NCBI GenBank assembly: GCA_964608725.1
Contig: CAZSPB010000003.1
Span: 55,645 to 119,644 of the forward strand
Direction of reading: 5' to 3'
DNA: 64,000 nucleotides
DNA from: an uncultured archaeon
Lineage (GTDB): Archaea > Aenigmatarchaeota > Aenigmatarchaeia > Aenigmatarchaeales > Aenigmatarchaeaceae
Shown: piece after piece, positions 2,849-35,948 of the stretch
Layout: the number at the start of each line of letters is the position of its first letter
Numbering within the stretch: the stretch's first letter is position 1
The notes under the pieces: model-generated
Databases searched by the model: none
What the model was told of the DNA's origin: nothing
What the model saw: the letters and a program-made list of their open reading frames with translations, nothing else
Translations under genes and position numbers: made by a program

Positions 2849-5248
2849 TTATATTCTCACACTTATTTTTATAGGATATCCTTCAACTTCTAAATCTCCT
2901 TCTCCAAATTCTAAATTCTTTACTTTCATAGTACCTTTTATATCATCAAAAAATCTTTCTAGTCTCTTCATTATTACTTCATCACATTTTATAGTAACCT
3001 TTTCCAAAGGTGCATTTAAAGCTAAACCTCTCCTGCTTTTGTACTTCCTAAGGAAAGATATTATCGCAACTACAATATCTCCTATCTCTTCTGCATCTTT
3101 GTCTATAAACTTTTCATTCACTTTTGGCCATTTTGAAACATGAATTGAAATATCTTTTTCAACGTTTCTAAAGTAAATTTGCCACATTTCTTCTGTTATG
3201 TAAGGTATTATAGGGGCTAACATTTTATTAACATTTAAAATTAGATTATATAAAGTGAAAAGAGCAGCATCCTTATTCTTATTTTCATACAACCTATATT
3301 TTATGATTTCAATATAATTGTCAGCAACATCATGCCATAAGAATTTGTGTAAAACTTCAAATGCTCTTGAAAATTGAAAATTTTCATAATAATAAGTTAC
3401 TTCTTTAATGACTTTTTGAAGTTTCGTTAATATCCAATAGTCTATTAAAGTTGGTTCAGCTTCTTTAAAATCTTTCAAGTGCATTCTAGAAAATCTAAAA
3501 ACATTCCACAACTTCGTTAAAAATCTGAATGTGAATTCCATATCTTTCCAAGAAAATGGGACATCATTTCCATAAGCCCCCATCATGATAAGGCCAGCTC
3601 TTATCACATCAGCCCCATGTTTTGATAAGACATCATCAGGCATAACAACATTTCCTAAACTTTTATGCATTTCTCTCCCATCAGGCCCAAGAATCATCCC
3701 ATTTATTAATATTTTTTTCCATGGTTTCATTTTCGTTTCAAGAAAACATCTTAAAATAGTGTAATAGGCCCAAGTCCTTATAATATCATGACCTTGCTGT
3801 CTCAAATCATTTGGATAAAGCTTTTTAAACAATTCATCATCTTTCCAATAACCAGAAATTACTAATGGTGTTATTGAAGAATCTATCCAACCATCACACA
3901 CATCACTTTCTCCAATTATTTTACCACCGCAATCACATTTTTTCAATTTGTACTCCTCTATAGCTGGGTTAACTGGTAAATCTTTTTCTTCTGGTAAATA
4001 TATTTTTCCACAAGATTCACAGTACCAAAAAGGAATTGGGGTTCCATAAACTCTTTGTCTTGAAAATATCCAATCCCAATCCATAGAATCAATCCAATTT
4101 AAAAGTCTCTTTTTCATGTATTCAGGATACCACTCTATATTCTCAGCTATTTCTTTTATTTCTTTTGAAAATTTCACAGCATCTATTGCCCATTGTTTTT
4201 TAGTTAAAAATTCTATTGGATTTAAACAAGTTGATCTTTCAGTGTGACAAAGAACATTATGCTTAAATTTTTCTTCTTTCTCTAGAAAACCAAGAATTCC
4301 AAGTTCTTCGGCTATCTTTATTCTAGCATCTTCTATTTTCATTCCTTTAAACTTTCCTGCATTTTCATTTAACCTACCATCTTCTGTCACAATGTTTATA
4401 GCTGGTAGGCCATATTTCTTTTGCCATTTTATATCAGACTCATCCCCATAAGTACACAAGTAAACAGCACCGCTTCCAAATTTCATATCAACTTCAGGGT
4501 TAGTAAGAATTGGAACTTCTCTATTAAATATAGGAAGTTTGGCCTTTTTGTTAACGAATTTTTTATATCTTTCATCTTTAGGATTCACAAAAATTGCAAC
4601 ACAAGCTGGAAGCATTTCTGGTCTTGTTGTTGCAATAGTTATAAAGCTTTCTTCTACAGGAAACTTTATGTAATAAAGAATTCCTTCTCTCTCAATGTAA
4701 CCAACCTCTGCTTTTGCAAGTGTTGTTTTACATTTTGTGCACCACATAACCGGATGCTCAACTCTTTTTATCAAACCCCTATGATACAAATTTAACAAAG
4801 TTTTTTGAACGAATGCTTTGTATTCTTTACTATCACTCCTATATTCAAAATCCCAATCAGCAGAATACCCCATTTCTATCATTTTATTTTTCATCTTCTT
4901 TATGCAATCTTCTGTCCAAATTTTACATAATTCTAAAAACTTCTCTTTATCCTCCTTATTCACATTAAAATTCTTTTCAACTTGTAGTTCAGTTGGCAAA
5001 CCATGGCAATCCCATCCTTGAGGGAGCAAAACGTTAAAGCCTTGCATCCTTTTAAATCTTGCTATGACATCATTCCAAGTCCACCATAAAACATGGCCCA
5101 TATGAGGTACTCCAGAAGTAAATGGAGGGGGAGTATCTATGATAAAAGTAGGTTTATCACTTTTTCTATTAAATTTGAATATTTTATTCTCTTCCCAAAA
5201 CTTTCTTATCCTAGGCTCCACTTCTTTAGGATTATAAACTTTTTGCAT
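2849..5248 (-). CDS. valS: Valyl-tRNA synthetase (class I)
   Basis: 'PPPFTSGVPHMGH' HIGH-type motif and a 'KMHKSLGN' KMSKS motif; a 799-aa length fits archaeal ValRS. Confidence 0.6.
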   Translation of the reverse strand: MQKVYNPKEVEPRIRKFWEENKIFKFNRKSDKPTFIIDTPPPFTSGVPHMGHVLWWTWNDVIARFKRMQGFNVLLPQGWDCHGLPTELQVEKNFNVNKEDKEKFLELCKIWTEDCIKKMKNKMIEMGYSADWDFEYRSDSKEYKAFVQKTLLNLYHRGLIKRVEHPVMWCTKCKTTLAKAEVGYIEREGILYYIKFPVEESFITIATTRPEMLPACVAIFVNPKDERYKKFVNKKAKLPIFNREVPILTNPEVDMKFGSGAVYLCTYGDESDIKWQKKYGLPAINIVTEDGRLNENAGKFKGMKIEDARIKIAEELGILGFLEKEEKFKHNVLCHTERSTCLNPIEFLTKKQWAIDAVKFSKEIKEIAENIEWYPEYMKKRLLNWIDSMDWDWIFSRQRVYGTPIPFWYCESCGKIYLPEEKDLPVNPAIEEYKLKKCDCGGKIIGESDVCDGWIDSSITPLVISGYWKDDELFKKLYPNDLRQQGHDIIRTWAYYTILRCFLETKMKPWKKILINGMILGPDGREMHKSLGNVVMPDDVLSKHGADVIRAGLIMMGAYGNDVPFSWKDMEFTFRFLTKLWNVFRFSRMHLKDFKEAEPTLIDYWILTKLQKVIKEVTYYYENFQFSRAFEVLHKFLWHDVADNYIEIIKYRLYENKNKDAALFTLYNLILNVNKMLAPIIPYITEEMWQIYFRNVEKDISIHVSKWPKVNEKFIDKDAEEIGDIVVAIISFLRKYKSRRGLALNAPLEKVTIKCDEVIMKRLERFFDDIKGTMKVKNLEFGEGDLEVEGYPIKISVRI

Positions 5249-6594: not shown

Positions 6595-6666
6595 GGGCCG
6601 GTAGATCAATGGAAGATCGCTACCTTCGCAAGGTAGAGGTTGTGGGTTCGAATCCCACCCGGTCCA
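6595..6666 (+). tRNA. tRNA-Ala (anticodon CGC)
   Basis: Cloverleaf drawn by hand: acceptor GGGCCGG/CCGGUCC with a G3:U70 pair, anticodon loop UUCGCAA, T-loop UUCGAAU, discriminator A. No encoded CCA. Confidence 0.85.
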
Positions 6667-7173
6667 CTAAAAAAGAGTGTGCGATTTAGTTACATCAAAA
6701 GGTTTTCCTTTACTCTTTTTATTTCTAAAAATTCTTTTGAAAATTTTCAGCTCTTCTGGTATCTTTGGCCTTTCCTCTGGAATATATCTTTGTGGTTGTT
6801 CTTCCTTATCAACTTCAATTTTATATGAATTTGGTGCAATAACTTCCAATATACTCCATTTTTCCATATCTTTTTCAGAAGCTGAAAAACTTACATAACC
6901 ATTATTTGATTTTAACCTCCTCTTTTTTCCCATCAATTCTTGCATCTTAACTTTTCTTAAAATTTCTCTAACAGGCTCTTCATCTTCTATTTTAATTTTA
7001 ATTGTGTATTTGTGATTAAATAATCCTCTTTTTTCTCCTTTCACAACATATTTCTCTCCATTACAAGAAAGAGAAAAATTATAAGTTTGATGAAAAAATT
7101 GTTTTATTTTTGATAAAGGAGACCTCATATATGAAATAGAAAAATCAAATTTATATAAGTTCATCAAAAACAT
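6667..7173 (-). CDS. Hypothetical protein
   Basis: 168-aa ORF with no recognisable motif. Confidence 0.3.
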   Translation of the reverse strand: MFLMNLYKFDFSISYMRSPLSKIKQFFHQTYNFSLSCNGEKYVVKGEKRGLFNHKYTIKIKIEDEEPVREILRKVKMQELMGKKRRLKSNNGYVSFSASEKDMEKWSILEVIAPNSYKIEVDKEEQPQRYIPEERPKIPEELKIFKRIFRNKKSKGKPFDVTKSHTLF

Positions 7174-7179
7174 TAATAC

Positions 7180-7252
7180 GGGCCGGTGGTCTAGTGGCTA
7201 TGACGCCACCTTGACGAGGTGGAGGTCGCAGGTTCAAATCCTGCCCGGCCCA
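7180..7252 (+). tRNA. tRNA-Val (anticodon GAC)
   Basis: Acceptor GGGCCGG/CCGGCCC, anticodon stem CCACC/GGUGG with loop UUGACGA, T-arm GCAGG-UUCAAAU-CCUGC. Confidence 0.85.
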
Positions 7253-7316
7253 TTAGTAATAGTTACTTTTGCTATTTCTAGCGAAAAAAGAAAATTTTTT
7301 GTTCATTTAATACTTC

Positions 7317-7520
7317 TTAAAAATTTTTATTAAGTGAATAATACCTTACCAACTTTTCTTCCATTGGAAGAAACTCGATTTCACTTTTTACATAACCATT
7401 TTTTTCCAGTTTACTCAAATAAATTTTTATTAAGTTTTCATCCGAATTAATTGCATCTGCTATTTGTTTTAAAGAAAGTTTTCTTTGATGTTCTAACAAC
7501 TTCATTATTTTACTCTCCAT
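7317..7520 (-). CDS. Small winged-helix DNA-binding protein (putative transcription regulator)
   Basis: 67 aa with an HTH-like 'LSLKQIADAINSDENLIKIYLSKLEKNGYV' segment. Confidence 0.35.
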   Translation of the reverse strand: MESKIMKLLEHQRKLSLKQIADAINSDENLIKIYLSKLEKNGYVKSEIEFLPMEEKLVRYYSLNKNF

Positions 7521-7608
7521 CTAAAACACCTTTTACAAAAATTCGAAAGAAGATTTTTATAATTTGCGAAAGCAAACTATTTTAAAATAGAAAGATAGAT
7601 GTATGATA

Positions 7609-7692
7609 GGGCCGGTAGCTTAGCCTGGTGGAGCGCTCGGCTGATATTAAATAGAAACCGAGAGGTCGCAGGTTCAAATCCTGCCCGGCCCA
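7609..7692 (+). tRNA. Intron-containing tRNA, probably tRNA-Ile (GAU) with a ~10-nt intron after position 37
   Basis: 84 nt. Acceptor GGGCCGG/CCGGCCC, D-arm GCUU..GAGC, anticodon stem CUCGG/CCGAG enclosing 17 nt (CUGAUA + 10 nt + A), T-arm GCAGG-UUCAAAU-CCUGC. Confidence 0.6.
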
Positions 7693-13858: not shown

Positions 13859-14135
13859 GGCAGAGGATTAGGCTGGGGAGCTACCGGTTCCCTGTAAGCA
13901 CAAATCCGGTTTATGGTGCGGCCGAAGCCTGAGGGCGGTGTCAGGAGTCATTGAGGTCCCACCAATCGACTGAGAAGCTTCGTCCCACAGAGTTGTTATC
14001 ATGGCGAACCGACGGAGGCCCGGAAGGGAGCACGTCTAAGTCATGGTAACAGCGTTTGTGGGGTTGCGAAGTGGAGAAGATTGGTGGGAGAAACCTCAAT
14101 GGTTCTTGACATCCACCGATGGCGCATCCTCTGCC
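13859..14135 (+). ncRNA. ffs: Signal recognition particle RNA (7S RNA)
   Basis: A GC-rich island in AT-rich DNA carrying the helix-8 motif 'GGCCCGGAAGGGAGCA'. The 5' GGCAGAGGA pairs with the 3' UCCUCUGCC (helix 1), and a T-run follows. Confidence 0.7.
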
Positions 14136-17921: not shown

Positions 17922-18014
17922 TGGGCCCGGCCGGATTTGAACCGACGTTACCAGCACCCCATTCCAGCAGTTAAACTGTAGCTGGTGTCCTAGACCAAGC
18001 TGAACGACGGGCCC
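17922..18014 (-). tRNA. Intron-containing tRNA (93 nt; ~18-20-nt intron in the anticodon region; anticodon unresolved)
   Basis: Reverse complement gives acceptor GGGCCCG/CGGGCCC, D-arm GUUC..GGAC, anticodon stem CCAGC...GCUGG enclosing 25 nt, T-arm GUCGG-UUCAAAU-CCGGC, discriminator A. Confidence 0.6.
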
Positions 18015-24425: not shown

Positions 24426-24586
24426 TGCGGAGGGCAGGATTTGAACCTGCGAAGGGACTAACCCACAGGATTTCTTTCATCTTTTGATCAAAACTTAAGA
24501 GCCAAGTCTTAAGTATCGCACAGCTGTCCTGCGCCTTTGCTCATGTTCGCTATGCGAACATATTGACCTGGCTTGGCTACCTCCGC
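24426..24586 (-). tRNA. Type-II-like tRNA (Leu/Ser class) with ~85-100 nt of intervening sequence; exact intron positions unresolved
   Basis: Reverse complement: acceptor GCGGAGG/CCUCCGC, discriminator A, D-arm 'UAGCCAAGCCAGGUCAA', T-arm GCAGG-UUCAAAU-CCUGC, and a variable-arm-like hairpin GGG-UUAGU-CCC. Confidence 0.5.
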
Positions 24587-24622
24587 GTAATTTAAAATAT
24601 AACAAAAGAATTTATAAAATTT

Positions 24623-25426
24623 TTACATTTTCTTTTTCAACTTTTCTAATTCTTTCTTGAATTCTTTTATCTTATTTTTTAAAATATCTATTGATTGCAA
24701 AACTATTTGCTCTGCCGTTAGTCCTGAAATTGATTCAACGTTAAAAATAAATCTTGTAGGGTCTCCTTCTATTTCTAAAACTTTTGGTTTAGAAACTTTA
24801 ATACATTCTTTACACATATCACAATCTAAAGAAAGAGAAACTTTTTTTCCTTCTATTTTTATAGCTTTTTTTGGGCAAGCATCCATAACTTCCTTAGAAT
24901 TTTTTAATTCACCTTTTAATTTAGCTATAGGATAATATCTGTACCAGGCATTAGCAGCTTGGTACCTAGCATGTTTTTTTCCTAAACCTAAGGATGCGAA
25001 AGCTTCCAATCTCAATTTTTGATCATCAAAAAGTTCTATGATTGGAATGTTATCGTACAAAGGTTTAACTTCTGGATCATCACTTTTCATATCCTTTGAA
25101 TAAACTATTCCTGGCCCTTTTTTATTAATTATGAATTTAACAACGCACAAAGAACATGTTTTTCCATCTTTATGCTCTTCTTTAAAATGAAACTTTTTTG
25201 GTTCAAAAACTAAGGGTATTAATCCTAGTCTATGAGCTATGACTTCATCGTAAAATATTGAATCATTTTCAAAAAAATCAACAGTATCTATAGCTAACAC
25301 AGGAATTTCTGAAATCATTATCCTTCTTAAAGCGTTAGCAAATTGGGGATTTGACTCTTCTAATAAGAATTGCATTTCCCTTTCGTTTTTCTTCAAAATT
25401 TCTATTTTCAAAGTATCACCAAGCAA
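24623..25426 (-). CDS. rpoD: DNA-directed RNA polymerase subunit D (Rpb3)
   Basis: Rpb3-like dimerisation domain with a 'CDMCKEC' Fe-S/Cys motif; located downstream of S11. Confidence 0.8.
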   Translation of the reverse strand: MLGDTLKIEILKKNEREMQFLLEESNPQFANALRRIMISEIPVLAIDTVDFFENDSIFYDEVIAHRLGLIPLVFEPKKFHFKEEHKDGKTCSLCVVKFIINKKGPGIVYSKDMKSDDPEVKPLYDNIPIIELFDDQKLRLEAFASLGLGKKHARYQAANAWYRYYPIAKLKGELKNSKEVMDACPKKAIKIEGKKVSLSLDCDMCKECIKVSKPKVLEIEGDPTRFIFNVESISGLTAEQIVLQSIDILKNKIKEFKKELEKLKKKM

Positions 25427-35707: not shown

Positions 35708-35898
35708 CGCCGAGGGCAGGATTTGAACCTGCGAGCCCCAAAGGGGCACCAGATAACTTACATCATTCCGCCTATCACTCCACATTTGCCGCCTTTCAGA
35801 GTCAAGCCATCATTTCATCTGTCTCAAGTATCGCTATCATCTCGAAATCAAAACTTGAGATGATTCTGGCGCGTTAAACCTGGCTCCGCCACCTCGGC
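35708..35898 (-). tRNA. Type-II tRNA (Ser/Leu class) with ~105 nt of intervening sequence in the anticodon region
   Basis: Reverse complement: acceptor GCCGAGG/CCUCGGC, Ser-like D-arm 'UGGCGGAGCCAGGUUUAACGC', anticodon-stem candidates CCAGA...UCUGG, variable-arm hairpin CCCC-UUU-GGGG, T-arm GCAGG-UUCAAAU-CCUGC. Confidence 0.55.
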
Positions 35899-35948
35899 GT
35901 AATTTAAATTAATATCTAAGAATTTTTAAATTTTACAGCACTTTATAA

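Follow-up and report, generated by a model that had tools for sequence, protein, structure and literature searches.

The best explanation of two unusually long genes on the minus strand of the DNA analysed here, a 64,000-nucleotide stretch of an Aenigmatarchaeota genome (the window), is very probably that they are functional class-II tRNA genes, tRNA-Leu(UAA) and tRNA-Ser(UGA), whose archaeal introns are removed by protein enzymes and whose anticodons lie in a micro-exon placed between two introns. The reading of both as multi-intron tRNA genes can be regarded as secure. One intron of each gene carries a module complementary to the anticodon loop of its own tRNA, which is considered below as a candidate methylation guide.

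Structure and in-silico splicing of the two genes

The window has about 30% G+C and carries the S13-S4-S11-RpoD operon, and the tRNA-Leu gene adjoins rpoD immediately downstream. Homologues of its RpoD assign the window to Aenigmatarchaeota, which belong to DPANN. The initial annotation had described a tRNA-like gene with a long body of 161 nt and a second long tRNA of 191 nt with related internal blocks; both genes were confirmed on the minus strand (Table 1), and the acceptor stem, D-arm, long variable arm and T-arm were perfect in each. The intervening sequence of the first gene, estimated at that stage as some 90-100 nt, is in fact 75 nt (26+13+36), and that of the tRNA-Ser gene amounts to 104 nt (36+68).

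Table 1. Coordinates of the features of the tRNA-Leu(UAA) and tRNA-Ser(UGA) genes in the window. H, central helix of the splice motif; h', inner hairpin; an arrow marks the cut.
Feature	Position	Strand	Description
tRNA-Leu(UAA) gene	24426..24586	minus	161 nt; 4 exons, 3 introns; product 86 nt, A73
Putative archaeal promoter of tRNA-Leu	24587..24625	minus	UUUAUAAAUUCUU about 30 nt upstream; UAAAUUAC abutting +1
Leu intron 1	24537..24562	minus	26 nt, D-loop, after gene nt 24; BHB with H GGUC/GAGC (3/4 pairs), bulges AA↓U and AA↓A, h' 8-bp hairpin AUGUUCGC/GCGAACAU
Leu intron 2	24515..24527	minus	13 nt, position 30/31, read from the sequence; H CGCA/UGCG (4/4 pairs), bulges GG↓A and AU↓A, 6-nt loop instead of h' (bulge-helix-loop)
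Leu micro-exon ACUUAAG	24508..24514	minus	7 nt, nt 31-37, with anticodon UAA
Leu intron 3	24472..24507	minus	36 nt, canonical 37/38; H CUUA/AAAG (3/4 pairs), bulges AG↓A and AA↓A; UAAG in most relatives (4/4)
Guide-like element UCUUAAG	24494..24500	minus	complementary to anticodon loop C32-A38
D'-like box UUGA	24488..24491	minus	fifth upstream nt pairs with U34
C'-like box region AGAUGAAAGA	24473..24482	minus	AUGAUAAG in relatives; overlaps 3' strand of BHB central helix
tRNA-Ser(UGA) gene	35708..35898	minus	191 nt; 3 exons, 2 introns; product 87 nt, G73
Upstream element of tRNA-Ser	35899-35935	minus	like that of tRNA-Leu
Ser intron 1	35830..35865	minus	36 nt, position 30/31; H CGCC/AGCG (3/4 pairs), bulges AG↓A and AU↓A, h' 8-bp hairpin AUCAUCUC/GAGAUGAU
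Module of Ser intron 1: UCUCAAG	35854-35860	minus	
Module of Ser intron 1: UUGA	35848-35851	minus	
Module of Ser intron 1: AUGAUAG	35834-35840	minus	
Ser micro-exon ACUUGAG	35823..35829	minus	7 nt, nt 31-37, with anticodon UGA
Ser intron 2	35755..35822	minus	68 nt, canonical 37/38; H CUUG/UAAG (4/4 pairs), bulges AG↓A and UU↓A
C/D-sRNA-like parts of Ser intron 2: CAGAUGA	35815-35821	minus	
C/D-sRNA-like parts of Ser intron 2: AUGGCUUGACU + CUGA	35796-35810	minus	
C/D-sRNA-like parts of Ser intron 2: AUGUGGA	35779-35785	minus	AUGAAGA in relatives
C/D-sRNA-like parts of Ser intron 2: AUGA	35763-35766	minus	

The Rfam tRNA model covered the tRNA-Leu gene end to end, from 24586 to 24426, at 35.1 bits (gathering score 29), with big inserts in the D-loop and the anticodon region, while the tRNA-Ser gene was missed by ARAGORN and by Rfam alike and an Rfam E-value scan around it returned nothing useful. 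ARAGORN called neither gene in the window and, in intron mode, reported the precursors wrongly as tRNA-Ala and tRNA-Gly. The cloverleaf was absent from unconstrained MFE folds of the precursors.

Splice sites were assigned by the bulge-helix-bulge (BHB) rule, according to which a 4-bp helix H has a 3-nt bulge at the 3' end of both its strands, and each bulge is cut after its second nucleotide. The rule was checked on the tRNA-Pro(GGG) gene of the window, read from 18014 to 17922, where CCAG-CU↓A...CUGG-AA↓U delimits an intron of 18 nt at position 32/33. All five junction pairs of the two long genes fit a BHB or relaxed BHB motif with 3-nt bulges; the central helix had 4/4 pairs in the Leu 30/31 and Ser 37/38 introns and 3/4 pairs in the Leu D-loop, Leu 37/38 and Ser 30/31 introns. 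In-silico splicing at these sites gave class-II tRNAs of 86 and 87 nt, which ARAGORN recognised as tRNA-Leu(taa) and tRNA-Ser(tga) without introns, with full cloverleaves and long variable arms. A73 fits the identity rules for leucine and G73 those for serine. A search for BHB motifs had been named beforehand as the test of the annotation, and its outcome, valid motifs at every junction pair and canonical mature tRNAs, bears out the suggestion of multiple related introns at non-canonical positions, the D-loop and 30/31 being among the positions of the five introns.

Splice sites directly flanking the anticodon loop (31/32 and 38/39) were also tried and gave no BHB; a shift of one nucleotide, to 30/31 and 37/38, yielded the same product with proper BHBs. 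A permuted or split gene architecture was ruled out because the exons all stand in linear order. In the proposed pathway, the splicing endonuclease would cut each 3-nt bulge after the second nucleotide after which the exons would be sealed by a ligase of the RtcB type. For the 30/31 intron, the BHB helix would use nt 25-28, which also belong to the D-arm and the anticodon stem; folding and intron removal are therefore probably sequential.

Near-identical elements precede the two genes, with UUUAUAAAUUCUU or UUUAAAAAUUCUU about 30 nt upstream and UAAAUUAC immediately before +1. Upstream of the tRNA-Leu orthologues of other genomes TTTATAAA is kept, and the upstream elements of both genes are putative promoters. 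A 3' CCA is encoded by neither gene.

Other RNA genes were present in the window. The tRNA-Pro(GGG) gene (17922-18014, minus strand), whose intron at the non-canonical position 32/33 has CAG/CUG as its h', was missed by ARAGORN and scored 43.9 bits with Rfam. On the plus strand, the tRNA at 7609-7692 is probably tRNA-Ile(GAU) and contains an insert of 10 nt in the anticodon loop (CUGAUA↓UUAAAUAGAA↓A) with H CUGA/AUAG (3/4 pairs) and a 3-nt loop; some small chance is left to tRNA-Phe(GAA) with a shifted intron. This insert is shorter than the 11 nt quoted as the minimum for an archaeal tRNA intron (PMC4090602). The tRNA is clustered with tRNA-Ala(CGC) and tRNA-Val(GAC) within 6595-7692 (plus strand), the acceptor stem GGGCCGG being common to all. 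An archaeal SRP RNA of only 273 nt was identified at 13861-14133 of the plus strand (Rfam RF01857, 156 bits); about 40 positions of the model are deleted, which fits a reduced DPANN genome.

Orthologues and shared blocks

A contig search with RpoD alone as the query returned no loci, and the same search with an alignment of RpoD homologues returned 19. At 17 of these, all from Aenigmatarchaeota, a tRNA-Leu(UAA) gene followed rpoD, directly or past an inserted ORF; RpoD identity was 51-73% for these 17 genomes, and synteny and splice motifs were conserved across genomes with 51-81%. The syntenic tRNA-Leu orthologues contained 1, 3, 4 or 5 introns. Ten relatives (L006, L008, L009, L011-L015, L017 and L018) carried the 37/38 intron only, and H was a perfect CUUA/UAAG in 8 of the 10, the UAAG strand being missing in L009 and L018. 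The D-loop and 30/31 introns were present as well in seven relatives (L002-L005, L007, L010 and L016).

The exons stayed intact across this range. In-silico splicing yielded the same 86-nt product in every relative computed, a set comprising all but L005 and L018. The H of the 30/31 intron had 4/4 pairs in 7/7 orthologues that carry the intron, and that of the D-loop intron covaries among orthologues (GGUC/GAUC, GGUC/GACC, GUCU/AGAC and GUCU/GGAU). For the 37/38 intron, 96.5% of the cells of a 12-sequence alignment were paired in the BHB conformer, against at most 55% for slid partner columns. In relatives without the 30/31 intron, ACUUAAG abuts the anticodon stem.

Two relatives carried introns at further positions. 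L004 has an extra T-loop intron of 47 nt at about 3500-3546 (tRNA-Leu nt 162-208), with H UUCA/UGAA (4/4 pairs), which holds AUGAAGA...CUGA, a C/D-like box pair. The tRNA-Leu gene of L016, 305 nt long, has five introns (13/14, D-loop, 30/31, 37/38 and variable arm), each with 3-4 of 4 pairs in H.

The D-loop and 30/31 introns of tRNA-Leu always occurred together. The 5' arm and loop of the D-loop intron hairpin (UCGCAUAGC, 24549-24557) are complementary to the 30/31 intron (GCUGUGCGA, 24516-24524) over 9-11 bp, a duplex that first showed up in the unconstrained MFE folds and has equivalents in L002-L005, L007 and L010. In 6 of 7 relatives its energy lay between -12 and -16 kcal/mol, compared with about -7 +/- 2.4 for shuffled sequences. 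The complementarity may stem from a shared origin of the two introns through partial duplication, or it may help to order the splicing steps.

Homologues of tRNA-Ser were sought with a metagenome pattern scan. The pattern was too loose, all but 4 of its 120 loci being chance matches; the four true tRNA-Ser(UGA) homologues (L046, L047, L054 and L127) carried the same two introns. The 3' arm of the Ser 30/31 hairpin (UUCGAGAUGAU, 35830-35845; UUGAGAUGAU in relatives) resembles the anticodon loop together with the start of the next intron (CUUGAGACAGAUGA, 35815-35828), which suggests that the 30/31 intron could have originated by local duplication of the loop/intron junction.

The shared internal blocks noted at the outset were substantiated in both genes. 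The 14-mer GCGATACTTRAGAC is matched exactly at just two places in the window, 24506-24519 and 35821-35834, and includes a perfect anticodon loop, which reads CUUAAGA in tRNA-Leu and CUUGAGA in tRNA-Ser; AAGUUUUGAU, AGAUGAAA and GGCUUG/UUGGCU were also found in both. The block GCGAUACUU(A/G)AGAC consists of the 3' BHB strand of the 30/31 intron (GCGAU↓A) and the anticodon loop (CUURAGA), and the loop is exon. This main block is not shared intron interior: half of it is exonic anticodon loop and the other half BHB strand. GCGAU↓A is common to both genes because it is the 3' half of the 30/31 BHB. The similarity of the blocks is not due to chance, since the same blocks are kept in the orthologues of other genomes. 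AAGUUUUGAU and AGAUGAAA are parts of one module, composed of UCUYAAG, 2 nt, xUGA, a loop or hairpin and AUGAUAR.

A module complementary to the anticodon loop

This module lies in the 37/38 intron of tRNA-Leu, downstream of the anticodon loop, and in the 30/31 intron of tRNA-Ser, upstream of it. A complement of nt 32-37 followed by 2 nt and xUGA was present, with invariant spacing, in 18/18 Leu and 5/5 Ser genes, so that U34 is in every case paired by the fifth nucleotide upstream of the xUGA box. According to the box C/D rule, the methylated nucleotide is the one opposite the fifth nucleotide upstream of the D or D' box. In all of these genes (18/18 Leu, 5/5 Ser) a guide G pairs with C32 at position 3 and U34 is at position 5. 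The element tracks the anticodon, being CUUAAG where this is UAA and CUCAAG where it is UGA. The motif occurred in 0.025% of shuffled introns.

The box-like elements agree in part with the consensus sequences of C (RUGAUGA) and D (CUGA). As the D'-like box, most genes have UUGA, whereas L002 and L004 have CUGA, L014 has AUGA and L018 has UCGA; the C'-like box is AUGAUAA or AUGAUAG, with the GA dinucleotides retained. An initial U in xUGA goes together with an A at position 6 of the C'-like box, and a U-A pair thereby replaces C-G. Most relatives have a hairpin between the two boxes in which two pairs are changed on both sides; within the Leu alignment covariation was not significant, as 64 of 500 shuffles reached the same level, and it is too weak to establish the pairing of either the guide or the hairpin.

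Before splicing, the module would constitute a minimal methylation guide of the box C'/D' type. It would pair with the anticodon loop of its own tRNA, the fifth nucleotide before the D'-like box would face U34, and fibrillarin-dependent 2'-O-methylation would produce Um34. The guide and BHB conformers would be mutually exclusive because the 3' strand of the BHB helix shares nucleotides with the C'-like box. That the introns might hold C/D-box guides had been raised in the initial annotation, and the idea is plausible; the element pointed to there, AAUGAUGG...CUGA, is not the sole candidate, and the best one appears to be UCUYAAG-NN-xUGA...AUGAUAR directed toward U34. Judged from these patterns, guidance of Um34 methylation of the own tRNA by the conserved intron module is a possibility that falls only slightly short of an even chance. 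More tentatively, the module could be a portable minimal C'/D' guide with a single k-turn or k-loop, moved between 37/38 in tRNA-Leu and 30/31 in tRNA-Ser and retargeted by one compensatory change.

Several features set the module apart from established guides. Its duplex is short (6-7 bp) and its boxes are degenerate, mostly UUGA for CUGA and AUGAUAA for UGAUGA. Only one box pair is present in each of the Leu 37/38 and Ser 30/31 introns, and efficient archaeal C/D RNPs normally require two pairs per RNA. CUUAAG is a palindrome, and a complement and a duplicate of the loop are therefore indistinguishable within tRNA-Leu alone. No Rfam C/D family matched at its gathering score, the only hit being GlsR6 at 35801-35814 with E=7, and a regex scan of the window gave no convincing candidate for a stand-alone C/D sRNA.

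It is also quite conceivable, if short of probable, that the genes are multi-intron tRNAs in which the anticodon complement and UGAU module is a structural element of the pre-tRNA and does not act as a guide. Possible roles would be to sequester the anticodon loop, to set the order in which folding and splicing proceed, or to stabilise the BHB by binding L7Ae at a k-turn. The overlap of the C'-like box with the 3' strand of the BHB (UAAG or AGCG) means that splicing alone could explain its conservation, and the degenerate boxes, the single pair per intron and the lack of a match to a C/D family agree with a structural role. Splicing, however, requires just the 4-nt 3' strand of H, and a second complement of 6-7 nt to nt 32-38, fixed at 2 nt from xUGA in 23/23 genes, is left unexplained, as is the occurrence of the module at two intron positions and its retargeting between Leu and Ser.

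The 37/38 intron of tRNA-Ser carries no U34 guide and is the only one with a four-box-like order. AUGGCUUGACU beside CUGA was kept in 5/5 Ser genes, and AUGAAGA or AUGUGGA is followed after 10-12 nt by AUGA. From its layout, this intron looks more like a full C/D sRNA, whose terminal stem would be formed by the anticodon loop and the 3' end of the intron. No target for AUGGCUUGACU (complement AGUCAAGCCAU) was found in the window. Matches of 6-7 bp between AUGGCUUGACU and tRNA D-arms, seen by eye, were taken as chance.

The second CUUAAG copy of tRNA-Leu, here assigned to the guide-like element, could in principle be the anticodon loop itself, in which case the two introns around it would measure 27 and 22 nt, and not 13 and 36 nt. 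A spliced alignment chose these boundaries, and they lead to an identical mature tRNA because the duplicated CUUAAG is palindromic. They are nevertheless very unlikely and were rejected because the helices are poor: in the window and the relatives, no more than 2-3 of the 4 pairs of the central helix form, against 4/4 (CGCA/UGCG) in 8/8 genes with the boundaries of Table 1. The first copy, moreover, is the one that abuts the anticodon stem in relatives without the 30/31 intron, and tRNA-Ser has the same GCGAU↓A junction with a single copy of CUUGAG.

That the genes are non-functional tRNA pseudogenes or integration-site remnants disrupted by insertions, as the failure of ARAGORN and Rfam on the 191-nt gene and the miscalling of both precursors in the ARAGORN intron mode might indicate, is extremely improbable in view of the perfect cloverleaves obtained once the BHB-bounded inserts are removed, the synteny and splice motifs kept among relatives, the exons that remain intact while intron number varies, and the conserved TATA-like promoter elements upstream.

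Comparison with known systems

Multi-intron tRNAs in DPANN archaea are already known. Those of Thermoproteales, Methanopyrus, ARMAN-2 and other DPANN resemble the genes described here in their short introns and BHB or bulge-helix-loop junctions; the window and its relatives have 2-3 introns (up to 5 in L016) at the D-loop, 30/31, 37/38, T-loop and variable arm. The occurrence of related introns in two different tRNAs here is comparable to the 'intron transposition' described for Thermoproteales. The present genes differ in the Aenigmatarchaeota host and in a micro-exon of 7 nt that carries the anticodon alone and has introns on both sides. Our literature search found no description of these Aenigmatarchaeota genes. 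With 1, 3, 4 and 5 introns in one orthologous gene, the series cleanly documents recent gains of introns in a reduced-genome lineage.

Standard tRNA finders miss or miscall such genes, ARAGORN missing both and Rfam finding one, and genomes of this lineage will consequently seem to be without tRNA-Leu(UAA) and tRNA-Ser(UGA). The same problem has been raised for those DPANN and Asgard lineages in which prediction of a complete tRNA set was not possible, and DPANN lineages whose EndA has a loop insert were reported to show more tRNA gene disruption (PMC5829648).

A guide-like module that is found in introns of both tRNA-Leu and tRNA-Ser, and at a different position in each, would be new. The intron of archaeal tRNA-Trp guides Cm34 and Um39 (PMC7994747, PMC4090602), and this guide of pre-tRNA-Trp, the only intron-nested one described, has been termed a 'unique example' in reviews (PMC4090602; see also PMC11408192). 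If the guide function proposed here is true, the module would be the first methylation guide encoded in an intron other than that of tRNA-Trp. Wobble methylation by tRNA introns would then extend from that single case to other tRNAs and to a non-canonical position, intron mobility would be linked to modification, and DPANN archaea would have a selective reason to keep and spread their tRNA introns.

The pre-tRNA-Trp guide of Haloferax volcanii and Pyrococcus (sR50) is the closest parallel, as its intron likewise complements the anticodon loop of its own tRNA with the wobble nucleotide at N+5. In Haloferax the guide and BHB conformers exclude each other, as proposed for the present genes, and the Ser 37/38 intron (68 nt), with its C...D'...C'...D-like order, is near in length to the Trp introns of about 65 nt (PMC4090602). 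The systems differ in their hosts, Leu(UAA) and Ser(UGA) here, and in the placement of the Ser module in a non-canonical 30/31 intron; the candidate module has one degenerate box pair (UUGA / AUGAUAR) and a guide of 6-7 bp.

In Pyrococcus, trans-acting C/D sRNAs have been predicted to target position 34 of tRNA-Leu(UAA), Leu(CAA), Met and Trp (PMC7994747). The predicted target U34 of tRNA-Leu(UAA) and the N+5 rule are thus the same as those proposed here (PMC7994747), whereas the Pyrococcus sRNAs are independent genes with canonical boxes in two pairs and the candidate guide described here would act in cis, from within the intron of its target.
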